Positions 13,788 through 64,000 of a stretch of 64,000 nucleotides of DNA are shown one piece after another. This stretch comes from an uncultured Verrucomicrobiae bacterium (GTDB taxonomy: Bacteria; Verrucomicrobiota; Verrucomicrobiia; Limisphaerales; Palsa-1400). Numbering within the stretch: position 1 is the first letter of the stretch; each line of letters opens with the position of its first letter. The position numbers were made by a program, and so were the translations under genes. Location of the stretch: positions 4,224,001-4,288,000 of the forward strand of contig OY969763.1 of NCBI GenBank assembly GCA_963702845.1, read 5' to 3'. The notes beneath the pieces were generated by a model, which was not told the origin of the DNA, did no database searches, and worked only from the letters and a program-made list of their open reading frames with translations.

Positions 13788-15395
13788 TTACACCGCCATG
13801 CCGAGCAGAAACTCGATGTTCGAGTTGGTCTTCTTTAGCTTGCCGAGCAAAAGTTCCATCGCTTCGACCGGTGGCACGCCAGTGAGCGCGCGACGCAGCA
13901 TGACGACCTTGCCGTATTCGTCCGGATGATAGAGCAGTTCTTCTTTGCGCGTGCCGGACAGCTCGACGTTAATCGAAGGGAATATGCGGCGATCGACGAG
14001 GTGACGGTCCAAATGGACTTCCATGTTGCCGGTGCCTTTAAATTCTTCGAAAATGACTTCGTCCATGCGCGAACCGGTATCGACCAGCGCCGTCGCCATA
14101 ATCGTCAGCGAACCGCCTTCTTCGATGTTACGCGCCGCGCCAAAAAACCGCTTGGGCTTGTGCAACGCATTCGCATCCACACCGCCTGACAGAATTTTGC
14201 CCGAATGCGGCTGAATCGTGTTGTAAGCGCGCGCCAGACGAGTGATGGAATCGAGCAAGATCACGCAATCGCGTTTGTGCTCGACCATGCGCTTGGCCTT
14301 TTCGATGACCATTTCGGCGACCTGCACATGGCGCTCCGGTGGTTCATCGAACGTCGAGCTGATCACTTCCGCGCCTTTGCAGGAACGTTCCATGTCCGTG
14401 ACTTCTTCAGGTCGCTCGTCGATGAGCAGGATGAAGAGATACGACTCTGGATTATTCTTCAAAATCGCGTTCGCCAACTTCTGCATCAACACCGTCTTAC
14501 CAGTGCGAGGCGGCGCAACGATCAATCCGCGCGTGCCTTTGCCAACGGGGCAAACGAGGTCGAGGACACGCGTCGAAAGTTCTTCCGGGCCGGTCTCCAA
14601 CAGGAAACGCTTATGCGGGAACAACGGCGTCAGGTTATCAAAATGAGTCTTATCCTTCGCCTTGTCCGGATCTTCACCGTCGACCGCCTCAACCTTCAGC
14701 AACGCAAAAAAGCGTTCCTTATCTTTCGGCGGACGAATCTGGCCGGTGATCAAATTGCCGGTCTGCAAATCAAACCGGCGAATCTGCGACGGCGACACGT
14801 AAATATCTTCCGGGCACGGCAGATAATTGAAACTGCGCGAGCGCAAGAAACCGAAACCTTCCGGCAAAATTTCCAGCACGCCTTCAGAGAACAAAACACC
14901 GGAGCGTTCCGCGTTGCTCTGCAAGATGTGGAAAATCAGCTCGTGCTTGCGCATGGTGCCGAAGTTCTCGATCCCCATGTTTTTCGCCATGGTATTGAGG
15001 TCCGGCATGCTCATCGCCTGCAAAGCAGCGATATTGATCGACTGCCCCTTCGGCAAATCTTCACCGCGACCGCGATTACGATCGCGATTACGCTGTTCCC
15101 ACTCGCGCTGTTCCACGTCATCGGGCGGAAAATCGTGGCCGCGCATGTCTTTACCACGGGCGGGCTCTGCGGCGACCTGCTCAGACTTCATGCCGTCGGC
15201 TTGGACCGGCGCCGGCTCGTCGCGCGTAAACTCAGGTTCACGTTGGGGTTCGGATTGGCGTTCAGGCGCGCGTTCCACGACGGCCGGTTCGGCCACCGCT
15301 TGCGCGATCGATTCAGAAGCCTTTCGCTCCAGCACCTCGGTGCTGGCTGCTTTCGCGCCCTTCTTAGGGGTTTTTTTGGACGCAACTCTTGGCAT
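13788..15395 (-). CDS. rho: Transcription termination factor Rho
   Basis: [50 protein letters not shown]. Confidence 0.98.
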
Positions 15396-46494: not shown

Positions 46495-48698
46495 ATGCAG
46501 AACACGACAACAGAGAAAAAGCCCGCTAATTCGCCCGATCGTCAATACACGATGGAGCGCACACGCAACATCGGTATCGCCGCGCACATTGACGCAGGTA
46601 AGACAACCACCACCGAGCGTATTCTGTTTTATACAGGCCTGATCCATAAGATCGGCGACGTCGATGACGGCAACACCGTTACCGACTGGATGGAGCAAGA
46701 ACGCGAACGTGGCATCACGATTACCTCAGCCGCCGTCACCTGCTTCTGGACGCAAAAGAAAGAAGAAGGGCTCCAAAAGCTTTTCACCAGCGTCGGCCAT
46801 CGCGTCAACATCATCGATACTCCCGGACACGTGGACTTCACCGCTGAAGTCGAGCGTTCCATGCGCGTTCTCGACGGCGCAGTCGCAGTGTTCTGCGGCG
46901 TTGCCGGCGTGCAGCCGCAATCCGAAACCGTCTGGCGTCAGGCCACCAAATACAAAGTTCCGCGCATCGCGTTCATCAACAAGATGGACCGCACCGGCGC
47001 GAACTTTGAAAACGCCCTCAACGACATGCGCAAAAAGCTCAATGCGTATGCCTATCCCATTTTCCTGCCTATCGGCGCGGAAGACCAATTTGCCGGGGTC
47101 GATCGACGTCGTAAATCAAAAGGCTATCAGTTGGGGAGAAGGAGAAGTCAAAACGGAAGGTCTCTGCTTACGAAATCACCGAAATTCCCGACAATCTGAA
47201 AGAAAAGGCCAAGACCGCTCTCGCCGAATTGATCGACGCCGTCTCCAATAAAGACGATGAAATCGCTGAGTCTGGTCATGAACGACAAGCCGGTCGAACC
47301 GCTGGTGCTCAAAGCCGCGATTCGCCGTTTGACCTGCAAAATCGAATTTATTCCGGTCACTCTGCGGTTCCGCTTTCAAAAAGAAAGGCGTGCAAGTTCT
47401 CGTTGACGCAGTCATCGATTACCTGCCGAGCCCGCTCGACGTTCCTCCAGCGACTGGTATGGAACCCGGAACACCCGGAAGCGAAGGCACTGTGGTCGTT
47501 GAATCCGACGACAACAACAAATTCTGCTCCTCGGCGTTCAAACTTTGGACCGATCCTTACGCTGGAAAACTCGTGTTCTTCCGCGTTTACTCCGGTCAGC
47601 TCAAGAAGGGCGACACGCATTTACAATCCGCGCACGCGCAAACGCGAGCGCATCAGCCGCCTCATGGTTATTCAAGGCAGCGAACGTAAAGACATCGACC
47701 ATGTTTACGCGGGCGACATCGCCGCACTCGTCGGCGTCCGCAACATCACCACCGGTGACACCCTTTGTAACGAAGATTACGACGTCATCCCTCGAACCGC
47801 CGACGTTCCCAGAACCGGTTATCAGCATGGCCGTCGAACCGAAGACCAAAGCCGACCGCGATAAGCTCGGCGAAGGCTTGCAACGTTTGGCTGAAGAAGA
47901 TCCGACGTTCCGTTGCTTTACCAACGAAGAAACCAGCCAGCTCATCATCGCTGGAATGGGTGAGCTTCACCTGGAAATCATCATCGACCGTTTGAAACGC
48001 GAATTCAAAGTGGACGCCAGCACTGGCGCGCCGCAGATCGCGTATCGCGAAACCATCACCAAGGGTGCCGAAGGCGAAGGCAAATACATCCGCCAATCCG
48101 GTGGTCGTGGTCAATACGGCCACGCTGTCGTCACTATCGAGCCGAATGAAAAGGGCAAAGGCATCGAAATCGTCAACAAGATCGTCGGCGGCGCGATTCC
48201 GAAGGAATACGTCCCGGCAGTCATCGACGGCATCGAAGAAGCCTGTAAGAGCGGCGTTTATGCTGGTTACCAGGTCATCGACATGAAGGTCGAGATCATC
48301 GACGGCAGCTTCCACGAAGTCGACTCGAACGAATTGGCGTTTAAGATGGCCGGTATTTTCGCGCTCAAAGAAGCCTTCAAGAAAGGCCGGCTCCGATCAT
48401 TCTCGAACCGCTCATGAAGGTCGAAGTAACCACGCCTGACGAATATCAAGGCGACCTCCTCGGCGACGTCAACCGCCGCCGCGGGACCATCATCGGCATC
48501 GACGCCAAGGGTGGCCAAACCATCCTGAACGCGCACGTGCCGCTGGCCGAAATGTTCGGTTACGCCACCGCGATCCGTTCGCTTTCCAAGGGCCGCGCCT
48601 CCTACTCAATGGAACCATTGAGCTTCGAGCAAGTCCCGAACAGCGTCTTGACCGTGATCATGGATGCCGCCGGCAAAAAGCCCGCCGCCCGCTGCTAA
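46495..48698 (+). CDS. fusA: Elongation factor G (multiple apparent frameshifts)
   Basis: [63 protein letters not shown]. Confidence 0.96.
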
Positions 48699-48735
48699 AA
48701 TTTAGGAGACGAGGTAACGAGTCTCCGACTATTGC

Positions 48736-48765
48736 AAAACTCCCGCACGAAAGTGCGGGAGTTTT
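48736..48765 (+). terminator. Rho-independent terminator after fusA
   Basis: AAAACTCCCGCAC-GAAA-GTGCGGGAGTTTT. Confidence 0.8.
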
Positions 48766-48840
48766 GTCCTTTAGTGCAATAAGGGTTGAGCCGGAATTGG
48801 CTTCTCGCCCGGCGGTGCTCTTCATTAACATTCGGACGAC

Positions 48841-53352: not shown

Positions 53353-53398
53353 ATTTGCTTCCAAGTTGGCGGTTGATTTCATTGTCCGCCGAAAAAAA

Positions 53399-53421
53399 TG
53401 GCGGGAGTGGCGGGGCTCGAA
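53399..53421 (-). mobile_element. tRNA 3'-end remnant, probable att junction of an integrated element extending rightwards
   Basis: Minus strand TTCGAGCCCCGCCACTCCCGCCA (T-loop, acceptor strand, CCA) with no tRNA body 5' of it. Confidence 0.65.
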
Positions 53422-53560
53422 ACCAATTGAACAAAACGCACGTTTTGCCAGTTATACGCAAGCTGCTACAGCTACCGTATTTAAGCAGACTGCATTTTTT
53501 TCACTCAGACGGTGACATGCACGTTTGCGCAACTTTTTAGTCAGGAATTGTCAGGAGAAA

Positions 53561-54277
53561 TTACTTTCCCATCAGCCGCGAAACGGTCGCCTCCGCCGCG
53601 CCGGCCACACTCGTTTTATTTTGGGCGTCGACTGTTCCACGCAATTGCCCGTGACGATGAGCAAAAAACCAGCCGCCAACGCTGAGCGCTACAGCGGAAA
53701 GAATCAGCAACTCGTTGCCGACGATCAGTGACGGCAAGATCATTAGAGCGACTCCCCCGCCGACCATCGCCAGGCTTGTGGTGATGCTGCCGACGATTGC
53801 ACGCAATGGCGGATAAAACAGCGAAGCCAGGCCAAACAAAAACAAGCCGAGCCCAACCCACACGACACCTTTCAAGCTCGCGAGCTTCGCACCGAATTCC
53901 CGCGCCGTATCCTTTTGCGCCGCACCAATCATCGTGCCCGCTTTTTCAATGACACGCGTTTTTTGCACCGTCGGCGCGGACAGCACGATCGTTTTCTCCT
54001 GCTTCACCGGCTCACCACCAGCCTGCGCTGCAGGCGTGACAATGATCTCCTGCACCCTGCTCTGCGCCGGGATCGGCAACTCAGTTTCCATCGTGCGCTC
54101 AAAATTCTGAGTGGCGCTTTGCGCCGGATTCTCGGGCTGCTTCAAATCCGCGACAAACTCGCGCGCTCCGTTTGTCGACACATTCGATTGGATGCGCGCC
54201 ACACCGGGCTTAAGCGGTTTAACTGTGCCGCAGGCGACAAGCGCCAGCGCGGCGAACAATATAATCAATCTTCTCAT
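53561..54277 (-). CDS. Phage-associated lipoprotein with C-terminal TM helices
   Basis: Lipobox LALVAC, three C-terminal hydrophobic segments; last gene of phage-like operon. Confidence 0.6.
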   Translation of the reverse strand: MRRLIILFAALALVACGTVKPLKPGVARIQSNVSTNGAREFVADLKQPENPAQSATQNFERTMETELPIPAQSRVQEIIVTPAAQAGGEPVKQEKTIVLSAPTVQKTRVIEKAGTMIGAAQKDTAREFGAKLASLKGVVWVGLGLFLFGLASLFYPPLRAIVGSITTSLAMVGGGVALMILPSLIVGNELLILSAVALSVGGWFFAHRHGQLRGTVDAQNKTSVAGAAEATVSRLMGK

Positions 54278-54287
54278 ACTCTCCTTT

Positions 54288-54614
54288 TTAATGGCCGGTG
54301 CGGCTCGCACCCTGAAATCTGCGAAGTTCGAAACTGCATTCCTGTAACGCGGCCGTATTACGATCCAGGCAGACGGCAAGTTTCAACGCCGTCTCATTTT
54401 GAGTGTTGATGATTTCCTGCAGCGCGGCGTGGTGTTCATGGCGCAGCTCCTTGTGGTCCGCAATCAAGCTCTGCAATTGCCGCACGAGCCAATAAATCAC
54501 CAGGCCGCACAACAACAGCAGCAGGCAAAACGCCGCCAAAAATAACCACCGGTCATTCATCGCCGCCGCATGATCCACCGCTTTCAAAAATTCAGTTGCG
54601 TTCATGTTCGTCAT
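54288..54614 (-). CDS. Single-TM coiled-coil protein (holin-like)
   Basis: One TM followed by heptad-rich tail; position in phage-like operon. Confidence 0.45.
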   Translation of the reverse strand: MTNMNATEFLKAVDHAAAMNDRWLFLAAFCLLLLLCGLVIYWLVRQLQSLIADHKELRHEHHAALQEIINTQNETALKLAVCLDRNTAALQECSFELRRFQGASRTGH

Positions 54615-54623
54615 CGTCTCCTT

Positions 54624-55208
54624 TCAAACTCGGACCAACTGCACCGCACCGCTCGCTCGACCAGGCAAATCGCCGAGCTTTGAGAGAAACGCTTGTGCCG
54701 CTTGAGAAATCGTCGGTCGCGTGTCGACCTTGCTGTATCGAGTCATCGAACTATTGCTGACGCTGCTCGAAGTTGTTCCGTCATTACTCGCGCTTGAGGC
54801 CGACGTCTGGGTCGTGTCAATTCCTTCGCCAAGCGGAGCGCCCGTTCGATCCAAAGCCAACAAGGCGCGCGCCATTTCACACGTAGCGTTAATCAAAGCA
54901 GCGGGAATCTGATCGCTCGCAAACACTGCGATGCCACTCGAATCAGGCGTCGCATCACGATCGGAACAATCAATCCTCGGCCACTGCAAAGCTTGCCCGG
55001 CAACGGTGCGAAGACCATGGAACCGATACTGCGAATCAATGACGCGAGTCGCGAACACGAGCGCTTTTTCCCTGTTCGCCGTCGTCGCGCCAGTCCAGAC
55101 CGTCGCGTACAAATGCCCATCGTGATAAGCATCGCCGTCGGCGGCGCTCGCGTAAGAATTCGCGCTCGCCAAACCGGTCCCATCTTCTTTTACGAGAACA
55201 AGCGCCAT
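54624..55208 (-). CDS. Phage head-completion/connector-like protein (DnaT-like family)
   Basis: MALV.EDGTG...ANSYAS, G.R....QALQWPR, IP.AL..A.CE.A. Confidence 0.7.
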   Translation of the reverse strand: MALVLVKEDGTGLASANSYASAADGDAYHDGHLYATVWTGATTANREKALVFATRVIDSQYRFHGLRTVAGQALQWPRIDCSDRDATPDSSGIAVFASDQIPAALINATCEMARALLALDRTGAPLGEGIDTTQTSASSASNDGTTSSSVSNSSMTRYSKVDTRPTISQAAQAFLSKLGDLPGRASGAVQLVRV

Positions 55209-55209
55209 A

Positions 55210-55527
55210 TTATCTATCCGGTAGCGTCACAATCTGTTTCAACCCAAGCCCCGCAATCGTGCGTTGCGGAAAGCCGGGATCCGTTGCGCCGTCGTAGTCC
55301 ACAACAACGGCATCAGGAAAAATCGCTTTGGCAGCAAGCAGCCGCTCAGGTCCCGTTCGAAAAAACAAAGCCGAGCACCAATAGTGCGTCGCCGGTGGCT
55401 TGCCGGTCGCAGACAAACCAATCGAAAACGTTTTCTCACCGCCATCGGAATCAAATTCTGATTTCGACAGAGCATTTGCTTGCGACTGATCCGCAGCGGG
55501 AATGATCACGAGATAGCGCACGCTCAT
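55210..55527 (-). CDS. Hypothetical phage protein
   Basis: Tightly coupled ORF in operon; GLS.TG..PATHYWC. Confidence 0.55.
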   Translation of the reverse strand: MSVRYLVIIPAADQSQANALSKSEFDSDGGEKTFSIGLSATGKPPATHYWCSALFFRTGPERLLAAKAIFPDAVVVDYDGATDPGFPQRTIAGLGLKQIVTLPDR

Positions 55528-56279
55528 AACTTCAAGTAGTTGTATTCCTCCTGGAAATACGCGCGCACGCCGGCCGCCTCATCGTCCGAGAGAAAACGAT
55601 CGTAAATAAGAATCTCCGCACAATCGCAATTGCCCGGATAGCCGTTGCTGCCCGATGCTCCCAACATCACTTGATAAGGCACCCCCGACCCGCCGCCACT
55701 CATCCCAACCTGCACGCCGTTCAAACAAATATTGATTGGGCTGCTCCCAGGAACCACGCGCGCCTCGACCAAATAAAAATCCGAATCATTGACAGATGCG
55801 GCTGCGCTCCATCCTTCGAAATAACAAAGCATCTGCCCATTGATATTGCCCATGGTCCAGTCGGCTGAAGCGGACGACAGAATCGCGCCGCTAAACACAT
55901 CGGCATCGGCCAACCTCCACAACGTGAAAATCGAAAATGCACCAGCAATTACGACCGGCGTTTCCATCCCATCATCGACCGTGTCGAATCGCGCAACTGC
56001 AAACGTCTTTCCCGCGAACGTCACAGTCTGAAAAGTCGGCTGTTGCGAAACCGTGATTTGCGAAACGTCATTTGCGTTGCCGCTCAGATCAGGCCAGAAC
56101 GCAATCGAATCATCATCACCCAAAGCCAGCGTGCTCGCTTTCAAACGCAACACGCAATCACCCGGCACATTCGCCAGCGCTGGCCCGCCCGCCGCCAAAG
56201 AATTGCGACGACGCCGACGCTGCTGCTGCATCGCAAACCACACGGCGGCTTTGGCCGGAACTGGAGACGCATCAATCAT
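55524..56279 (-). CDS. LamG/ConA-like domain protein (putative capsid appendage/receptor binding)
   Basis: WPDLSGNAND..Q....QP, FD..DD, AEILIYDR.LSD.E...V..Y. Confidence 0.6.
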   Translation of the reverse strand: MIDASPVPAKAAVWFAMQQQRRRRRNSLAAGGPALANVPGDCVLRLKASTLALGDDDSIAFWPDLSGNANDVSQITVSQQPTFQTVTFAGKTFAVARFDTVDDGMETPVVIAGAFSIFTLWRLADADVFSGAILSSASADWTMGNINGQMLCYFEGWSAAASVNDSDFYLVEARVVPGSSPINICLNGVQVGMSGGGSGVPYQVMLGASGSNGYPGNCDCAEILIYDRFLSDDEAAGVRAYFQEEYNYLKL

Positions 56280-56457
56280 CTGAGGTCGTCGGCGGGGCAT
56301 CTGTTTTCGTTTCAGGTTTCGCCAGTTGCGTAGGTGCGACAGGCGCGGCAACTTTCGCCGGCACGACCGCAGGAGCAGCCGTGCCGGCATCAGTAGGAAT
56401 CAGTGGACGGCGAACCCGCCGGATAATCGGATACAATTGGTCACGAGCCGGGTTCAT
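56272..56457 (-). CDS. Small Pro/Ala-rich hypothetical phage protein
   Basis: Start and stop overlap both neighbouring genes. Confidence 0.5.
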   Translation of the reverse strand: MNPARDQLYPIIRRVRRPLIPTDAGTAAPAVVPAKVAAPVAPTQLAKPETKTDAPPTTSDD

Positions 56458-56681
56458 ATGGCGTTCGCTCCAATCGCAACCTGCTTCCAATTCGTGCCGT
56501 CGGAAATTGCGAGGCACGCCACAGAACCAGTTCCGCCAGCGCTCAAATAAATCATGCGTCGCGGAAACTTCGCGGCAGTAATGCCAGCAGCGTTCGCAGC
56601 GGCAACATTTGTGAACGTCGGGATCTGAATGACCTCACCCGACCGAATCTTTTCAGAACCCCAGGGAATCAGCTTGCCCAT
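56454..56681 (-). CDS. Small phage protein (decoration/head-fibre-like)
   Basis: AGAAAGGA RBS; MIY.S.G......LAISDGTNWK motif; directly after capsid gene. Confidence 0.55.
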   Translation of the reverse strand: MGKLIPWGSEKIRSGEVIQIPTFTNVAAANAAGITAAKFPRRMIYLSAGGTGSVACLAISDGTNWKQVAIGANAI

Positions 56682-56751
56682 AAAATTTTCCTTTCTATTG
56701 GGGGAGCGCCACCCCGACACCATTTGGTGTGCGGGGTCGGCGCCCGGTTTG

Positions 56752-57762
56752 TTAATTGTTGTGAGTCACCGCGACGATGCGGACGTTTTTGTTTTCCCAA
56801 ACGCGGGTCCAGTTCGCGCCGGTTTCCAATTCGGCATTCGTGGGCGAATCGCCAGCAACAGAAGCGCTGGTAAACTTCACGCCACGCGGATGCAGAAGAT
56901 ACCGACGCCGATTGATCAGAATCGTATCGCTATCCAACGGAGCACGCGCAATCTCGACGCCTTCAGTGCCGATACCGCCTTGCAGCGGCGTCGAATCCAG
57001 TTTCGACGAGCCTTTCGCAAACGCGCCCTGGCCAAACAAGTAGGTCGTGTAGACCGTGCCATCAGTCGTGCCAGCCCGAGTGGGCAAGTTGTCATCGACA
57101 ACAACACGCCGACCTTGGAACACGCGCAAGAGCGGCTTGCCCTCGCTGTCCGGGATGAAGTCGATCAAGTCGAGCTTGCGCAACGCAGCTTCAGTTGCCG
57201 AGTGCATCGCAACGGCAGTGAGTCGATCAGCACGATCGCCCAACTTCGCGCAAGCATCCACGAACGTCGCACCAGTCAACTTCGTCGACGAAGCAGCGCC
57301 AGCCGCCGACTCCGAATGAATCGCGAGCAAATTGCCCGCCATCGAACCTGCCGCGAACATGCCCTTGAGACACGACACGACGAGGCCTTCATCCGTGCGC
57401 GCCCAATACTGCCCGACCAGGTCCACGATCGCCTGCATCACATCATCGCCCGAAATCACCTTTGCCAGGTGATTCACAGACCAAACCTGCGCATCGTTAT
57501 GAATGCGCGCGACATCTTGATCAGTGCCGATTTTATTAACCGTGAGCGGTGCCGAATCATTCAGCAACTGCCGCGTTGCCGTCAGGTCTTTCCAAAACGG
57601 CATCTTAACTTCGCGCCCACCTTCGGCCGCGATTGCATCGAACTCAGGCGATGCCTCGACAATACCGCACTCACCGAACGCCGCTAATTCAGCCGTGCGC
57701 TCGATTGCATATTTTTCAAACTCTGTGGGGATGATAATGTCCGCCACTGCTGTTTTTGCCAT
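56752..57762 (-). CDS. Major capsid protein
   Basis: KT.VADIIIP.EF..Y, GG..V.MPFWKDL, AMHSA, F.GRRVVVDD.LP, LLHPRGVKF, PTNAEL....NW.RV. Confidence 0.85.
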   Translation of the reverse strand: MAKTAVADIIIPTEFEKYAIERTAELAAFGECGIVEASPEFDAIAAEGGREVKMPFWKDLTATRQLLNDSAPLTVNKIGTDQDVARIHNDAQVWSVNHLAKVISGDDVMQAIVDLVGQYWARTDEGLVVSCLKGMFAAGSMAGNLLAIHSESAAGAASSTKLTGATFVDACAKLGDRADRLTAVAMHSATEAALRKLDLIDFIPDSEGKPLLRVFQGRRVVVDDNLPTRAGTTDGTVYTTYLFGQGAFAKGSSKLDSTPLQGGIGTEGVEIARAPLDSDTILINRRRYLLHPRGVKFTSASVAGDSPTNAELETGANWTRVWENKNVRIVAVTHNN

Positions 57763-57837
57763 AAACGTTTTTTCTCCGGTTTATCCTTCATTACGAAGGG
57801 GGTTAAGATCCGTGCGCGAAGCGCCTTGGCCGGCACG

Positions 57838-58650
57838 CTAGTGCCCCGACGCCTGTAAGCGCGCGGCGAGTTGCGGATCAGTTTTTTGCAGTCTCATTTG
57901 CTCCGTCAAATTCCAGCTTTCCTTGCGGAAGGGATTTTTGACGGACCGACCTTGTCGTGAGCCAGCGCCTCCACCGGAAGCGTCGCCAGCGGCACCGCCA
58001 CCAGCATTGGATTCGAACAAGTGAGGAGCGTCGGAAACTTGCGAATCCACCCACTCCTCTAAAGTCATCGGCGTCACGCCATCCTTGCCGTAACGCACAG
58101 TCTGGCCATCAGCCTCGAATGCGCGCGGCGCACCGTTCACCAACTTGAAAACATTTCGCGCGCGTGCGGTGATGTCCGTAAGCGCAGTTGCACGCAGCCC
58201 TCTCTTTGTCGCAGCGCCAACCACACCTTGATCAATCTGAATCGCAGTGAGCCGAGCATTAAGGGAATCACGCTCCGAAGTGAGAGTGGTGAGTTGCTTG
58301 TCCCAATCCGCTTTCAAACCCTTCACACGATTTTCAACAACCTTCTCCAACTCACCCGCCTTGAGTTGCTGCGCTTCTTCGAGTTGGCGTTTTTCGTCAG
58401 CGAGCTTCCGGAACTCATCCGGATCAATCCCGTCGAATCGGGTCTTTTGCTCTTCGATCTGTTTCAGCAACGCCAAATTGCTCTGGCGAAACTCATCCAG
58501 CCGGGCTTTGAGGGCATCGTGGCCGTGTGCTAACACTTTGTCGGCATCGCCGTCGGCTTCCAAAACCCAAGCGCCGTCGCGCTCGACATAATGCGCAGCC
58601 AACTCAGCCGGAATTTCGCTCTTCGAATTAAACTTAAACTTCAGTGCCAT
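57838..58650 (-). CDS. Phage capsid scaffolding protein
   Basis: Coiled-coil, APHLF..NAGGGA.G, KNPFRKESWNLTEQ; between portal and capsid. Confidence 0.75.
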   Translation of the reverse strand: MALKFKFNSKSEIPAELAAHYVERDGAWVLEADGDADKVLAHGHDALKARLDEFRQSNLALLKQIEEQKTRFDGIDPDEFRKLADEKRQLEEAQQLKAGELEKVVENRVKGLKADWDKQLTTLTSERDSLNARLTAIQIDQGVVGAATKRGLRATALTDITARARNVFKLVNGAPRAFEADGQTVRYGKDGVTPMTLEEWVDSQVSDAPHLFESNAGGGAAGDASGGGAGSRQGRSVKNPFRKESWNLTEQMRLQKTDPQLAARLQASGH

Positions 58651-58662
58651 AATCGTTCGTAG

Positions 58663-60360
58663 TTATGCCGCAATCGGTTGGTTCGTCGGCACAGCAGCAG
58701 CGGCAGATGCCGGAGCCGACGTTTGTCTTGGTTTTTGCCCCGGGTCGCTGGGACCGGAATCGGAAGTGCGACTCGCACCGCTGGGACCGGATTGGGAACC
58801 GCGACTCGAGGTGATGAGCGCCACCTCGTCTTCATTCGAGCGCCCATCCGGCAAAATTTCTCCACGCCGGAAAAGCTCCAGCATCGTGTCCTGGCTGATT
58901 GCACCCGCTTGCCATGCAGCGACGATCTCGCGCAGCTCATTACTATCCATCCCGGCCGTCGTGAAATCCGTGTTCAGCGACATCACAACAACGTTGTCAG
59001 TCAGCGCTTCGGGAGTTTCTTCGGTGGAATTCCACCAGTAAACCCAGCGCAAAACCTGCGTCAGCGACTCGCTCAAACTCGTCGCCACATTCGCCAGCAC
59101 GCTGTTCTCACCGCTCTGCCGCAGCTCGATCGCTTGCGCCGTTTCACCCACGCGCTTCTGCGACTCCAACAATCGCGAACCAAGCACAGCCAAAAGCTTT
59201 TCATCACGATCCATCGCGCGCTCGAAAGTGGTGAGCCCTTGGCCCGTAAATTCCAGGAAGCCAGCAGTTGCCCCCGGCGCTTCCGAATGCCAGGCAGTGC
59301 TTGAACCGATGCGCAGCGGCTCACTTTTATCGAAACCACTCACCCACGCCGTCGGCAATGCGGTAAAATGCATGCCGTGCTTGTAATCGGCATTGAGCCG
59401 GTAGTGATCCAGATTCACTGCGATCAAATCAGTCAGCGGCAACTTATCGACAGCCGGCAAAGAATTGCGCGGTCCATGAAAAACAAACGGGATCAGCGGC
59501 AGCGGTTTACCAAGGCGTAGAGGCGTGCGCGTTTCAACCAAGGTCCATTCAGCCTTGCTGCCTTTTTTCGACGCAGAGCCTTGGCCGCGTGCTAACGCCT
59601 GCCAGATTTCAACTTGATACGCGAACGAAGCCTTCCGTGAATTCGGGTCGCGGGTCGTGGAACGACCAAGCTCTTGTGTTGTTCCAATCTCAGGACCGGA
59701 ATCGGAGGTGCGACTCGCACTCGCACTGCGGACCAACTTGAGCACACGAATCTGCTCCACAACCTCAGGAGCAAATTCATCTACGCCAACGCCGCCGGCT
59801 GCAATGTGGCCGTGTGCTAACACTTCCGACAACACGATCAACGTTGGCAAGTTGCGACCATTTACACGTTCCACTCGCCAATTGATGATTTGCTCAGCCT
59901 GATACAGCGAGACATAGGCGCGGTTTTCAAAATCCCCTTCCCAATCAACCAACGTCCCGGCTCGGCCTACGCCGATAACCTCAGTGACCAAATCCTTTGC
60001 GTAGCCAGTCAGCGACGTGCCCAGCATATCGCAGTCGTTAACGAACTGCCCGAGCGCGGAAGCGAGCGCAGATGGAGCCCCTCCGGATGGTGCCCGTCCG
60101 GAAGGACCTTCAGGAATTTTGACAAAAGGCGCGCGACGAAATATTAACCCGCTGTAGCCATCGAGCGTTCGGCCCGTCGCATTGAAGAACGAAGCGCGAT
60201 CGCGATAAGCTTTGAATTCGTCATCCGATTGCGAATCCAACTTTGGCAAATAACGCTCGCCCGCAGCTTTGACGGCATCCTCACCAGCCAAAATATCGCG
60301 CGCACGAATCCATGCGGATACGCTTGCGTCATATTCGATGTGTGTAGAGTTAACCGGCAC
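58663..60360 (-). CDS. Phage portal protein (DUF4055-like)
   Basis: GE.AVK..GE.YLP, Y..RA.FFNAT.RT, Y.AEQIINW, IPFVF.G, LPL..L..VNL.HY...ADY..G.HFTALPT, W..GAISQ.T; GTG start inferred. Confidence 0.85.
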   Translation of the reverse strand: MPVNSTHIEYDASVSAWIRARDILAGEDAVKAAGERYLPKLDSQSDDEFKAYRDRASFFNATGRTLDGYSGLIFRRAPFVKIPEGPSGRAPSGGAPSALASALGQFVNDCDMLGTSLTGYAKDLVTEVIGVGRAGTLVDWEGDFENRAYVSLYQAEQIINWRVERVNGRNLPTLIVLSEVLAHGHIAAGGVGVDEFAPEVVEQIRVLKLVRSASASRTSDSGPEIGTTQELGRSTTRDPNSRKASFAYQVEIWQALARGQGSASKKGSKAEWTLVETRTPLRLGKPLPLIPFVFHGPRNSLPAVDKLPLTDLIAVNLDHYRLNADYKHGMHFTALPTAWVSGFDKSEPLRIGSSTAWHSEAPGATAGFLEFTGQGLTTFERAMDRDEKLLAVLGSRLLESQKRVGETAQAIELRQSGENSVLANVATSLSESLTQVLRWVYWWNSTEETPEALTDNVVVMSLNTDFTTAGMDSNELREIVAAWQAGAISQDTMLELFRRGEILPDGRSNEDEVALITSSRGSQSGPSGASRTSDSGPSDPGQKPRQTSAPASAAAAVPTNQPIAA

Positions 60361-60498
60361 GTGCGCATTTGTAGCACACGTTTTTCCGAAAGCTTTTGAA
60401 GGCAACTAGACGACACGAACCAACGCGAATCTCCGTACACTCTTCGCGAACCAACGCGAAAATTTTTGGCGAAAAAAAGTTTTGACAGGGTTTCAGAC

Positions 60499-60620
60499 AA
60501 CCCCAAAGCGGGTTGAAGCATCCAGCCCAGGTGTTGAGGAGGGATGCGGGGCTCTACCCTGGGTAACCCGCCTCAACCGCAGATTCACTTTGCCGAAGGC
60601 GCGACGAAGGAGTTAAAAAC
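60499..60620. repeat. REP-like intergenic element (copy 2)
   Basis: AACCCCAAAGCGGGTT...AGCCCAGG...CTACCCTGGGTAA...GCGACGAAGGAGTTAAAA; similar to 19186-19298. Confidence 0.6.
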
Positions 60621-60649
60621 CCATCTTCAGCAAGAGCCGCAACCTGCGC

Positions 60650-60709
60650 TAAAACGCTTGTTCGCGGATTAAAAATATGCGCACTGTTGGCGCAGATTAA
60701 TTGTTCGGT
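60650..60709 (+). repeat. Repeat A copy 1 (putative recombination/att-promoter module)
   Basis: TAAAACGCTTGTTCGCGGATTAAAAATATGCGCACTGTTGGCGCAGATTAATTGTTCGGT. Confidence 0.85.
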
Positions 60710-60721
60710 GAAGGAGATCCT

Positions 60722-61051
60722 ATGAAGAAAATCTTGCTGTCTGTTTCGTTGATCGCCATGTGCATCTTGATGATCGCGGCCGAGTCTACGCAATCCACAG
60801 TCGACGAGAAGACCGCTCGGAAGCTGGCGGCTGAGCAGTATAATCAATTGTTCCTCGGTGCGTATTTGCTTCTAGGCTCGAACTATATTCAGTTTCCAAA
60901 GCTCGACCCAACATCCTTCGACACGGTTAAGGTCAAAGATGGATGCTGGCAGGTGGTTATGGATCCACCACAAGGCTGGTATGTCGATTCGAAGGTGTCG
61001 CTGGATGGTAAGTGGGTACAAATCACCCGTGCTGGTTTCTCTCCGGATTGA
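60722..61051 (+). CDS. Cassette-like gene 1: secreted hypothetical protein
   Basis: AAGGAG RBS, signal peptide. Confidence 0.7.
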   Translation: MKKILLSVSLIAMCILMIAAESTQSTVDEKTARKLAAEQYNQLFLGAYLLLGSNYIQFPKLDPTSFDTVKVKDGCWQVVMDPPQGWYVDSKVSLDGKWVQITRAGFSPD

Positions 61052-61166
61052 GACGACAAATTTCACGCGGGGACTGCGGCGGCAACGAAGGCGTTCTCGG
61101 TGGATGCGGGTTTCGGCACCACCACCGTCTTCATGACCTCCATCGCGCCAAACCTGCGCGCCACCT

Positions 61167-61221
61167 TTAAAACATTGTTCGCGGATTAAAAATATGCGAA
61201 CTGTTGGCGGATGTTAACTGG
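61167..61221 (+). repeat. Repeat A copy 2
   Basis: TTAAAACATTGTTCGCGGATTAAAAATATGCGAACTGTTGGCGGATGTTAACTGG. Confidence 0.85.
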
Positions 61222-61236
61222 TAGACCTGCGCTAGC

Positions 61237-61782
61237 ATGAAGAAAGCGATTCCATTCGTTGCCTTGATCGTTGCTGGCATCTGCATGGTGGTAGCCGTTT
61301 ACTTTTGCCACTTCTATTACACCCGCGAATTGGAGAGCCGCCTCAATTACTTCGACCACCGGCTTGCCACTCTCGAAGCTCACAAGTCTCGACAGCTTAC
61401 CCCAGTCCGCGTTTGGGCAGTGATTTCCACCAGTGACAAGCCAGCCGACGAGGGTCTTCGGTTTTATCTTTCTTCGGAGAAGCACCGGGACGATTTCTTC
61501 GAGGCCATTGGCGCGAAAGGCGGCCCTCTGGTTCGACCAGAGCTTCGCTTGCCCGCTGGCTCGATCACCAACTGTACGTATGATATTCAGGTTGGGAGCC
61601 AGTTTGGTATTGTGGCTGATGCCTGGCTGTCGCACGCCGCGCCATATCAGGATTTGGCCGCATTCGACGAGTTTCGCGTCTACTCTCCGAATAGGACGAA
61701 CATCGTGAGACTAATTGCACGACCCAAACCCGGTGCTTCCGTCCAGATGCGGTTTAATATTGTGCTGTTGTGTGAGCAGTAA
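61237..61782 (+). CDS. Cassette-like gene 2: membrane-anchored hypothetical protein
   Basis: 181-aa ORF with N-terminal TM, starts just after repeat A. Confidence 0.65.
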   Translation: MKKAIPFVALIVAGICMVVAVYFCHFYYTRELESRLNYFDHRLATLEAHKSRQLTPVRVWAVISTSDKPADEGLRFYLSSEKHRDDFFEAIGAKGGPLVRPELRLPAGSITNCTYDIQVGSQFGIVADAWLSHAAPYQDLAAFDEFRVYSPNRTNIVRLIARPKPGASVQMRFNIVLLCEQ

Positions 61783-61794
61783 TTTGACGACGGA

Positions 61795-61952
61795 TCAGCT
61801 CGTCCATTTCCAATCGCGGATCTCCGGCATGTCGTCGCCGTGCTCGCGGATGTAATGTTTGTGTTCCATGAGTTTGTTTTGGATGGCCTGTTTGGCGTAG
61901 GCGGCCCGCGCGCCCAGTTGCGGCAGGCGGTCGATCACGTCGGCGAAGAGAT
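61795..61952 (-). pseudogene. xfp: 3' fragment of phosphoketolase (Xfp C-terminus)
   Basis: HLFADVIDRLPQLGARAAYAKQAIQNKLMEHKHYIREHGDDMPEIRDWKW matches the XFP C-terminal pattern. Confidence 0.8.
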
Positions 61953-62070
61953 GCGTTTTGTTGCGCTTGATTCGCAGCGGCAGCAGAACAATAGTCTGCT
62001 CAACCAATATGAACCAACCGTTCGTATATCAAAATGACCGCGATACCCCGTCGCATAATCATTGTTAGGC
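61953..62070 (+). repeat. Repeat B copy 1 (118 bp, ends in GTTAGGC)
   Basis: Near-identical to 63247-63364. Confidence 0.9.
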
Positions 62071-62082
62071 GGATTTCAAGTT

Positions 62083-62382
62083 ATGCGCTTTATCGGATAC
62101 GTTTTGCTGTTAGTTGGTTTTTTGTGGCTGGTTGTTTGGTGCGCTGGCTCGGTTGTGCCGTTGATTCGGAATATCGGGATTGGACATTTCAAGCAGTATT
62201 CTCCCACAAAGACATATTCTGGCAGTGAAGTTTGCGATGGGATTCGTAGTGCGCTCATTGAGTATCAGGACAATGCGCACGGAGTTGTTTTGCCAGCCAC
62301 GCTAATGCTGGGTGGCGGAGTTTTGCTGGATTTAGCTGGCCGCCGGAAAATCAAACAAGGAGATGAGAAGCGATCCGCCTAA
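62083..62382 (+). CDS. Cassette-like gene 3: 2-TM hypothetical protein
   Basis: Flanked by complementary GTTAGGCGGAT / ATCCGCCTAAC; stop codon lies within GCCTAAC. Confidence 0.7.
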   Translation: MRFIGYVLLLVGFLWLVVWCAGSVVPLIRNIGIGHFKQYSPTKTYSGSEVCDGIRSALIEYQDNAHGVVLPATLMLGGGVLLDLAGRRKIKQGDEKRSA

Positions 62383-62402
62383 CCATGCGCGGCGCGCCAC
62401 CT

Positions 62403-62457
62403 TTAAAACCCTTGTTCGCGTCTTAAAAATATGCGAACTGTGGTCGTGTATTAATTG
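62403..62457 (+). repeat. Repeat A copy 3
   Basis: TTAAAACCCTTGTTCGCGTCTTAAAAATATGCGAACTGTGGTCGTGTATTAATTG. Confidence 0.85.
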
Positions 62458-62477
62458 TAGGTTGTTGCCGCCCTTTT

Positions 62478-62762
62478 ATGCCAAAGCCAGATCACATTTT
62501 GAGTTTCGCGACGGACACGGACGGCGATCAGTTGTTCATTCACGCCGACGCTAAGGGCTTGGACCATTTGATTCGTTCGCTTACGCATATCCGGAAGAAG
62601 CTCGACGAAAATTATTGTGACCACGACCACCTAATGACTGACGCTTGGGGAGGCAGGGAGCTTTCAGAGCGGAGCATGCCAGACGGCATTCATTTGATTC
62701 ATCACGTCAAGATTTATGGCTGGACTGCAGAGTGGGTCCAGAAACATGGGTTATCGTCCTAA
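62478..62762 (+). CDS. Cassette-like gene 4: Imm32-like immunity protein
   Basis: IHAD.KGL..L...L, DHDHLMT.AWGG.ELS, LIHHVKIYGW. Confidence 0.65.
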   Translation: MPKPDHILSFATDTDGDQLFIHADAKGLDHLIRSLTHIRKKLDENYCDHDHLMTDAWGGRELSERSMPDGIHLIHHVKIYGWTAEWVQKHGLSS

Positions 62763-62798
62763 CGGATGACGCCCGCGCTGATGGCGTAACACGTCGTT

Positions 62799-62852
62799 TT
62801 AAACCCTTGTTCGCGGATTAAAAATATGCGAACTGTTGGCGCAGATATAATT
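62799..62852 (+). repeat. Repeat A copy 4
   Basis: TTAAACCCTTGTTCGCGGATTAAAAATATGCGAACTGTTGGCGCAGATATAATT. Confidence 0.85.
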
Positions 62853-62866
62853 ATCAAAACAGCAAA

Positions 62867-63181
62867 ATGAAGGTAGCTGAATACATATCCAGGACTGCCG
62901 GTTGGCTTCTGATTGCTGCAGTGCTTGCGATCGGCTTTGGCTTTATGTTTGGCGTGCCACAGTCGGGACTATATCGACGTGTCTTTGATTTCCTTTTTGT
63001 CGACTTGTCCTATGAACTCTTAAAGACTGGCGTCCCACAGTCAATTGTCTCAACTGCAGGACACATTCCGCACTTTACCGTTGTAGGGGTGCTTTTATTC
63101 TTTGTGCTGCCGGCAATTTGTTGTTTCGTTGTAGCCGGGCGACTCCACAGGCAACTTGGGCTAAACGATAAACGCCCGTAA
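62867..63181 (+). CDS. Cassette-like gene 5: 2-TM hypothetical protein
   Basis: ORF begins 15 bp after repeat A. Confidence 0.6.
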   Translation: MKVAEYISRTAGWLLIAAVLAIGFGFMFGVPQSGLYRRVFDFLFVDLSYELLKTGVPQSIVSTAGHIPHFTVVGVLLFFVLPAICCFVVAGRLHRQLGLNDKRP

Positions 63182-63189
63182 GAGCGGCG

Positions 63190-63243
63190 CTACGCGCTCC
63201 ATTTCCAATTGTGGATCTCCGGCATGTCGTCGCCGTGCTCGCG
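63190..63243 (-). pseudogene. xfp: Second, shorter phosphoketolase 3' fragment
   Basis: Minus strand reads REHGDDMPEIHNWKWSA*. Confidence 0.7.
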
Positions 63244-63246
63244 AGC

Positions 63247-63364
63247 GCGTTTTGTTGCGCTTGATTCGCAGCGGCCGCAGAACAATAGTCTCCTCAACCA
63301 ATATGAACCAACCGTTCGTATATCAAAATCACCGCGACACCCCGTCGCCTAATCATGGTTAGGC
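63247..63364 (+). repeat. Repeat B copy 2
   Basis: Near-identical to 61953-62070, ends GCCTAATCATGGTTAGGC. Confidence 0.9.
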
Positions 63365-63378
63365 CGCTGCGACATATC

Positions 63379-63954
63379 ATGCGAACATTCCGAAATTTGT
63401 TTATCCTCATGGGCCTTCTCTCATTTCTCTTCAGCGGTTGCATCAAGCGGCCAGAGGCACAGAGCCCAGCGAGTTCCAACAGATCGTCCGGGGAGGTGTC
63501 GTTCGAGAGGACAACGGGACTGCGTGACAAGGTCATTGCCAACTCAAAAGACCAAGCCAGCCTCCGCGAACTCGTGAGTCTGCTGGATGACAGCTCCGCC
63601 CTTAACAGGGCCAATGCGGCGGGATGCCTGCGTCAGCTTGGGCATAATAGAGTGACGCGAGATCAAGTTGCGCCGATCGCCGTTCCGGCGTTAGCTAGTC
63701 GAATCGACTCCGTAGGTCGCGAAGCACCGATTGCTCTGGGCGCTTATGGATCGCTTGCGGCGCCCGCGGTGCCTCAGTTGATACGAGCAGTCGAGCAGTA
63801 TCCAACGCAAGATACAGGGTGGTTTGCCGCAGAAGCGTTGGGTGACATCGGCCCCGCTGCGAAGGACGCAATTCCAGTACTCACGGCCGTTAAAGACAAG
63901 AAGTGGATCGGCGAATACGCGGCGAAGGCGTTGCGGAAAATCAACGGCATATAA
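63379..63954 (+). CDS. Cassette-like gene 6: HEAT-repeat lipoprotein
   Basis: Lipobox LFSGC; ALG..G..A..AVP.L repeats. Confidence 0.75.
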   Translation: MRTFRNLFILMGLLSFLFSGCIKRPEAQSPASSNRSSGEVSFERTTGLRDKVIANSKDQASLRELVSLLDDSSALNRANAAGCLRQLGHNRVTRDQVAPIAVPALASRIDSVGREAPIALGAYGSLAAPAVPQLIRAVEQYPTQDTGWFAAEALGDIGPAAKDAIPVLTAVKDKKWIGEYAAKALRKINGI

Positions 63955-64000
63955 CGTAACCAGAGTCCTACAGCGGACGGCGGGTTGACCTGAGTTTGCA

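Follow-up and report, generated by a model that had tools for sequence, protein, structure and literature searches.

The window analysed here comprises 64,000 nucleotides (nt) of an uncultured Verrucomicrobiae bacterium (assembly GCA_963702845.1, contig OY969763.1, positions 4,224,001 to 4,288,000, forward strand). From position 60650 on it carries an array of small genes, each standing behind a copy of one of two conserved repeats, A and B, which to judge by their sequence are almost certainly copies of the integron attI of this bacterial lineage. Repeat A occurs four times (55 nt, at 60650, 61167, 62404 and 62799; 82-85% identity to copy 1) and repeat B twice (118 nt, at 61953 and 63247; 95% identity). 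These coordinates bear out the order A,A,B,A,A,B proposed in a first-pass annotation made from the sequence alone. The six co-oriented small genes that it described are open reading frames (ORFs) of 94-191 aa starting 15-21 nt past the crossover G or the end of similarity, and the words GTTCGGT (60703) and GTTAGGC (62064 and 63358) lie where it placed them. The cores of A2 to A4 are degenerate (GGTAGAC, GTAGGTT and TATCAAA), that is, at three of the six sites in the window. In a Pfam scan gene 4 matched Imm32 (E 4.7e-08) and gene 6 HEAT_2 (E 2.1e-09), and the N-terminus of gene 6 is lipoprotein-like, in agreement with the earlier labels "Imm32-like" and "HEAT lipoprotein"; genes 1, 2, 3 and 5 matched no family in that scan. 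The array reads as follows.

60650..60709, + strand: putative attI copy A1, crossover G|TTCGGT at 60703
60722..61051, + strand: gene 1, 109 aa, hydrophobic N-terminus, without Pfam match, no inverse core left
61063..61147, - strand: 3′ end of a kinase-like host gene, fused to the A flank, 99% identity to the intact copy
61167..61226, + strand: putative attI copy A2, degenerate core G|GTAGAC at 61220
61237..61782, + strand: gene 2, 181 aa, hydrophobic N-terminus, without Pfam match, no inverse core left
61803..61953, - strand: 3′ end of the host phosphoketolase gene xfp, 151 nt, 98.7% identity to the intact gene (XFP_C, E 2e-11)
61953..62070, + strand: putative attI copy B1, attI proper about 62010-62064, crossover G|TTAGGC at 62064
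61967-61995, + strand: promoter-like TTGATT-17-AATAGT in B1
62083..62391, + strand: putative cassette 3, gene for a 99-aa membrane protein, with perfect inverse core GCCTAAC at 62377-62383, then a truncated attC
62404..62463, + strand: putative attI copy A3, core G|TAGGTT at 62457, which may have lost one T
62478..62763, + strand: putative cassette 4, Imm32 gene, 94 aa, with inverse-core-like end TCCTAAC at 62757-62763
62799..62858, + strand: putative attI copy A4, decayed core
62867..63181, + strand: gene 5, 104-aa membrane protein, without Pfam match, no inverse core left
63190..63243, - strand: second xfp 3′ end, 54 nt, its junction class differing from that of the first
63247..63364, + strand: putative attI copy B2, promoter-like site at 63261-63289, crossover G|TTAGGC at 63358
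63379..63954, + strand: gene 6, HEAT-repeat protein with lipoprotein-like N-terminus, 191 aa
63954..64000, + strand: decayed left half of an attC, its likeness to the attC at genome position 4836674 judged by eye
Right of the window (L001, 4000-5746): shortened attI and Imm53 gene, then A5, a cassette and a complete attC
Right end of the array: two more cassettes after the A5 unit, the last one with a complete attC

The right limit first set at 64000 does not stand, because the array extends about 1.75 kb past the window, where complete attC sites are found. With this extension its 5 kb contain some ten genes and about eight attI-type sites.

Identity of repeats A and B

The reference for attI was drawn from 30 genomes of the same family, five of which have an integron integrase match, four of these above the TIGR02249 cut-off. 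In four of the five IntI-positive genomes the start of intI is preceded, on the other strand, by CGAAC-N5-GTTGTATATTAATTG|TT or a close variant, which matches the 3′ end of repeat A. In two of those four a cassette with a full attC comes after the intI-adjacent site, and in the fifth genome an attC remnant takes the place of that site. A second form of attI lies beside intI stubs at L156 and L163; it aligns with A and B over about 55 nt and in blastn matches the B copies with E 9e-06. Since the last 55 nt or so of A and B align with each other, what had been described as two separate repeats is better seen as one family of integron attI with two subfamilies, both of them conserved.

An exact attI pattern scan of the GTDB collection returned 12 loci, every record being titled Verrucomicrobia or Verrucomicrobiota; two adjoin a full-length intI, six adjoin 5′ intI stubs and four are without intI. 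The exact A pattern had no match in GTDB genomes, repeat A as a DNA query in 60 relatives gave two marginal matches only, and both attI patterns were absent from the IMG/VR viral contigs (0 matches).

For attC, a covariance model was built on 14 training sites of this genome (13 of them elsewhere or beyond the window, and none of them A or B), and it scores the integron attC of relatives at up to 83 bits. Within the array part of the window its best score is 9.3 bits (E 2.5), and the R''-L''...L'-R' hairpin is absent from A and B. The repeats therefore do not score as ordinary complete attC sites; a score of that kind would have overturned the earlier claim that the spacers are something other than attC hairpins. 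Folding of the bottom strand of A and B gave z-scores of -2.3 to +0.2; these do not discriminate, because two real attC gave -1.8 and -0.4.

The source DNA is a single 6.03-Mb contig, whose cumulative GC skew comes back to about zero, and it holds about 75 attI copies, 47 of type A and 30 of type B. The A profile finds its 47 sites at E<=0.1, the best match in the reversed genome having E 1.7, so that repeat A is not a chance pattern; the B copies are 30 blastn matches. A broader profile including the sites of relatives gives 71 sites at E<=0.5, against none in the reversed genome. A and B are thus not confined to the phage-like island described below. They are genome-wide repeats, but not generic ones, as the downstream gene varies at nearly all of the 74 sites with an anchorable crossover (45 A, 29 B), on which the cargo statistics rest: downstream DNA is common to only one pair, and one further site is followed by a dispersed repeat. 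GTT is present at the crossover of 26 of the 29 B and 23 of the 45 A copies, and the full GTTRRRY in 14 and 8 copies, respectively; no conservation of the right arm beyond TTRRRY was found in either subfamily.

A palindrome, CGAACAGCGGGTTG-N8-CAACCCGCYGTTCG, which looks like two attI 5′ halves placed face to face, is found at L001:4050-4100. Further copies lie at genome positions 1298098, 1329755, 1826879, 2347852 and 2655975, the one at 1826879 being joined back-to-back to an A site. Many lone A sites adjoin remnants of a terminase 3′ end (genome 397788, 2361395, 2817001, 3667419, 4294505 and 5419668), and such sites are therefore probably relics of the island family. Elsewhere in the genome, a tRNA-SeC (selenocysteine) gene is predicted at c2718603-2718699.

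Cassettes, promoters and integrase

The genes behind A and B appear to be mostly integron gene cassettes, inserted at G|TT by IntI. An incoming cassette brings the bases after the G, which are complementary to the inverse core at the end of its own gene (PMC12901181, PMC4889954). At 23 of the 74 sites the post-crossover 6-mer is perfectly complemented at the gene end, where permutation gave a mean of 3.6 and a maximum of 10 in 5000 trials; with the common TTAGGC left aside, the figure is 16 of 60 against 1.4. A complete attC comes after 21 of the 74 genes (15 of 29 behind B, 6 of 45 behind A). Single ORFs with a core and a complementary inverse core or an attC are accordingly found genome-wide. 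Within the window a perfect inverse core remains for gene 3, with partial remains for genes 4 and 6. Gene 3, whose truncated attC is fused to A3, and gene 4 may belong to the delta-attI type of cassette; elsewhere in the array a host tail of 54-151 nt intervenes.

The attC model finds at least 49 sites in the genome at E<=0.022, the 14 training sequences included; this is a lower bound, because 150 of 2902 candidates were scored. It superseded a regular-expression scan that had given 491 candidates, mostly false. Two complete attC, at genome positions 4288912 and 4289656, lie just right of the window (53-63 bits, both in the training set), so that by this model the right end of the array agrees with the definition of an attC cluster without integron integrase (CALIN), namely at least two attC within 4 kb and no intI nearby. 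A transposase of the IS110 family of insertion sequences (IS) is present in six copies of 98-100% protein identity, among them genome 2186404-2187555 (L032:4404-5555) and 4307515-4308666 (L002). The two copies examined lie inside attC, oriented opposite to the cassettes.

The spacers had been taken for repeated attI/promoter-like modules. The attI part of that description holds, while the DNA before the repeats includes 3′ ends of host genes, and a promoter-like site is present only in B copies. In 23 of the 29 of these, TTGATT-17-AATAGT or a variant stands about 69 nt before the crossover, which suggests a promoter for B. No promoter was found for A, and a consensus promoter scan of 60400-64000 gave no site on the + strand. 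A reading of the 5′ part of B as a remnant of a promoter borne by intI has no significant support, as 4% of random windows score as well.

Truncated intI genes in the family are of interest in this respect. In 26 of the 35 N-terminal pieces the last residue is one of residues 66-93 (of 314). This is shortly beyond an antisense TTGATT-17-CATCCT, in which four stubs read TTGACA, TTGACG or TTGACT in place of TTGATT. From this position of the stub ends we infer retention of a cassette promoter. Read on the cassette strand, TTGATT-17-CATCCT is the candidate cassette promoter (Pc) of this integron family (L127, L128, L151, L152, L156-L161, L167-L184). The sample of stub ends began as 40 rows; removal of 3 duplicates and of 1 internal piece left 36, with loci mainly from longer matches. 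In 28 of these 36 distinct stubs the ends are spread over nt 212-252, hence not the product of one crossover, and a single site-specific breakpoint was rejected.

No integrase had been visible in the window, and a search for IntI extends this to the whole genome: the TIGR02249 profile reached at best 86 bits against a cut-off of 265, and tblastn with the IntI of the family found only two Xer-like genes of 28% identity. Neither intI nor a convincing remnant of it was found within 500 nt upstream of any A or B site (best E 0.005). No complete integron was thus found in the genome, and the array would now be frozen unless IntI comes from outside. Class 1 IntI1 excises and inserts attI-type cassettes, attI1-aadB-attI1 being excised at 100% (PMC12901181), and the persistence of attI-gene-attI units here fits the absence of IntI, by extrapolation from another integrase.

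Surroundings and stacking of the array

The array sits between the terminase and portal-like genes of a 47-kb phage-like island bounded by a duplication of tRNA-Asp, and begins about 245 nt upstream of the portal-like gene, on the opposite strand. The island recognised in the first-pass annotation is thus real, with these features in the window:

53393..53424, - strand: copy of the tRNA-Asp 3′ end, left boundary of the island (32 nt, 94%)
56752..57762, - strand: major capsid protein, Gp13-like (PF20036, E 6e-08)
58663..60405, - strand: portal-like protein (DUF4055, which we take to function as a portal)

The intact tRNA-Asp and a 451-aa tyrosine integrase lie about 47 kb right of the left boundary, the integrase being about 35 kb right of the window. 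The content of the island (window 53393-60405 and on to genome 4324352) includes integrase, primase-polymerase, terminase, portal, scaffold, capsid and DnaT-like genes; no tail gene was evident among the long ORFs scanned, a part of those from the capsid gene to the left end. Two more attI clusters, of five and three sites, lie in the island at L002:2661-7650 and 14184-15150 (genome 4306661-4319149), accompanied by several complete attC, and a gene with a WYL domain is close by. Short repeats occur inside the portal and scaffold genes (window 58514-59825), D3 of 28 nt and D6 of 25 nt, each three times, and their GGCCGTGTGC..ACAC word recurs elsewhere in the island.

The island has four relatives in the genome, and all five carry A or B in the gap between terminase and portal. 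This position might be taken to mean that A and B are a phage promoter or operator module, of which the PeSL (promoter early stem loop) elements of T4-type phages are an example, or Xer dif-like half sites, their likeness to an integron being incidental. The modules do contain inverted repeats, and B reads GTCGCATAA-6 nt-TTA, resembling a XerC arm. However, A and B are homologous to the intI-adjacent site, the inverse cores are specific to each cassette, and among 91 related portal loci of other genomes and viral contigs none has a significant attI and one has an attC. Such an origin is thus scarcely credible. The XerCD/dif idea was dropped once the homologue beside intI had been found; no canonical dif was found in the genome, and the right arm of A and B varies with the cargo. 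A phage origin of the attI module is likewise not supported by the count of 91 loci, from which it follows that the islands were colonised from the attI pool of this host. The prophage terminase-portal gap would be a tolerant landing place and not the source. The homology to the intI-adjacent site, together with this position, also upholds the proposal of repeated attI-like modules, one gene each, accreted within a phage-like island.

Three of the spacers consist of host-gene 3′ ends. Ahead of B1 and B2 this end belongs to xfp, whose intact gene is at genome 2198661-2201087, and ahead of A2 to a host gene of about 723 aa, kinase-like as read by eye, with its intact copy at genome 2343933-2346104. 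Next to each of the two intact genes stands an attI-cassette unit, tail-to-tail with the end of the gene. Outside its native locus the xfp tail has 24 matches in the genome. The native G|TT is the exact start of six of them and three others start within 1-5 nt of it, with differing DNA upstream. Upstream of these tails is a model-scored attC in two cases, and most of the others are attC-like by eye. The right junctions of the 24 copies fall into at least five classes, and most continue into the DNA upstream of B across a handful of bases common to both sides, as is characteristic when the native locus is joined head to tail. Because six tails begin exactly at G|TT, attI itself seems to have travelled in the manner of a cassette: IntI would have moved the stretch between core and attI, with attI serving as the site of that cassette.

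The favoured reading as a whole, which we consider probable, is that the array stacked since attI itself turned mobile; the mode of stacking that follows we would call likely, with a wider latitude. At the outset, a mini-integron in the chromosome would have stood tail-to-tail with a host gene, xfp or the kinase-like gene. Joining at short homologies, of which the junctions are seen, would fuse the host tail to the DNA upstream of attI and yield a circle or a tandem duplication as a presumed intermediate. The resulting unit, TT-core, host tail and attI-G, would be bounded by two crossover points, so that IntI could excise it and insert it at another attC or attI. Each insertion would create a new entry site and, for B, perhaps also a promoter. 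Later deletions may have removed most attC hairpins, and the tail copies that start past G|TT would need further deletions or the homology-based alternative set out below.

Several observations weigh against this reading. Fifteen of the 24 xfp-tail copies, both window copies included, start away from G|TT, and no kinase-tail copy starts at or near it. In the window a perfect inverse core is confined to gene 3, and nothing of it is left in genes 1, 2 and 5. The A sites are weak cassette heads, with GTTRRRY in 8 of 45 compared to 14 of 29 B and an inverse core with at most one mismatch in 8 of 45 compared to 21 of 29. In four genomes with a full intI (G013, G015, G025 and G027) 3-6 attI pattern matches were found; as intI-bearing genomes also hold several, loss of IntI is not required for a few attI copies. 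In one study attI1 donors gave no insertion into the E. coli genome beyond the background level (bioRxiv 2022.09.11.507474), and since such donors fail at genomic secondary sites, isolated copies probably travelled inside larger pieces or prophages. The assembly, finally, has frameshifts in the gene for elongation factor G (EF-G) and is rated 89.8% complete. This gene is split across several frames at window 46495-48800, which suggests indel errors of assembly, and such indels could also explain some of the degenerate cores.

The starts of both window xfp tails and of all kinase tails would suit a history in which IntI loaded each attI, and stacking and dispersal came about by homologous or short-homology recombination among shared repeats, attI not being moved by IntI. 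The right junctions of the host tails are short-homology joins and not G|TT, five related islands provide long homology, and one entire A-cassette-xfp-B block is duplicated at 98% between two arrays. Homology cannot, however, place the six xfp units that start exactly at the crossover behind unrelated DNA, and nearly every site carries a different gene, so that duplications alone do not yield the array. We consider this history unlikely.

Insertion sequences that target attC could in principle also have mobilised attI-cassette units, via adjacent deletion or circle formation. In two other genomes, G226 and G289, the spacer from a truncated attC to the next attI usually begins with an IS1182 end inserted after the GC of attC, and the present genome has 4 IS1182-type ends and 6 copies of an IS110, at least two inside attC. 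In the array of the window, however, no IS end or transposase was seen, and 4 IS1182-type ends are few against about 75 sites, which makes this route very improbable here and applicable to the relatives only. The IS1182 element and short derivatives resembling miniature inverted-repeat transposable elements insert in attC after GC with a GCGC-like duplication (L145:3517-4950, L156, L162 and L163).

Relation to known integrons

The closest known case is probably found in class 1 and 2 integrons, in their rare cassettes of the delta-attI type and of the form attI1-ORF-attI1, although Table S1 of that source may hold closer ones; there, too, an attI-derived site replaces attC after the gene and a second attI lies within the array (PMC12901181). 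Such units, for which PMC12901181 credits Partridge et al. 2000, 2009, have been shown to be excised and inserted by IntI1, and they number 96 among 1,685 class 1 integrons (PMC12901181). The fragments described there are mostly of 14-18 nt (one of 244 nt, and one complete attI1) and lie beside intI, whereas the sites described here are of about 55-115 nt, head nearly every gene, number about 75 per genome, are accompanied by host tails and have no intI that we could find.

CALINs and single attC sites lacking integron integrases (SALINs) resemble the array in having cassettes and attC without a neighbouring integrase, and half of the CALINs sit in IntI-less genomes (PMC4889954; bioRxiv 10.1101/2022.09.11.507474). 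Both are defined by attC alone, attI being unsearchable for most integrons. Here, in contrast, attI is the repeated unit and most attC are truncated, and the window part of the array, which has no complete attC, would be missed. In phage-borne integrons and CALINs, too, the terminase and capsid genes have a cassette array in their midst; one example is Shewanella phage M16-3, where an integron and a CALIN each begin with attI (PMC9892861). That phage has one attI per array and an intact IntI, unlike the about eight attI-type sites in 5 kb, without IntI, of the present array. The complete integrons of the same bacterial family (L023-L026 and L134) have a homologous attI and the same family of attC (80-83 bits), but consist of intI and one attI heading attC-separated cassettes. 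The array resembles an integron platform with its cassettes but is not a complete integron. Earlier it had been set against the established scheme of one attI beside intI; its modules are indeed attI-like, but it is an integron derivative rather than a separate capture system.

At three mismatches, the attI pattern is matched in 26 of the 30 family genomes, with 1-11 matches each (some counted twice), compared to 37 here and 0-2 for controls. In a sample from the whole order, 10 of 300 other genomes match it at two mismatches. G226, a genome of another family, has 25 attI in ten stretches around matches, often 370-1170 nt apart, ten with a perfect inverse core, so that tandem attI arrays recur in another family. 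No IntI was found in G226 (93% complete) with the family query, which gave only C-terminal Xer-like matches. Its spacers start with an IS1182 end in attC, which is another way of reaching this architecture. In G289 intI stubs occur in tandem, and a B-type attI comes after at least two of them. Tentatively, and with more doubt than assurance, we suggest that this order of Verrucomicrobiota may run a distributed integron, in which promoter and attI, often with a 5′ intI stub, are the selected mobile unit, present at many sites and giving each gene its own entry point and promoter, while IntI acts episodically and in trans. The attI-like matches in 26 of 30 family genomes and the similar ends of 26 of 35 intI pieces are consistent with this idea.

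None of the entries turned up by a full-text literature search, in which most subscription papers were beyond reach, describes dozens of attI, dispersed or in tandem, within a single genome or for this lineage. The parts and their chemistry are already known; what seems to be new is their arrangement as a multi-attI cassette array. Integron models assume one attI per platform, with expression declining along the array. In the present case almost all genes have an attI of their own, with about 75 copies per genome, and an arrangement of this kind has been reported as unstable under an active class 1 IntI. If our reading is true, it would show one way in which cassette clusters without an integrase come about and perhaps remain expressed, host DNA beside an integron could be packaged in the manner of a cassette, and this genome would provide dozens of natural attI variants for a class of sites that lies beyond current search tools.

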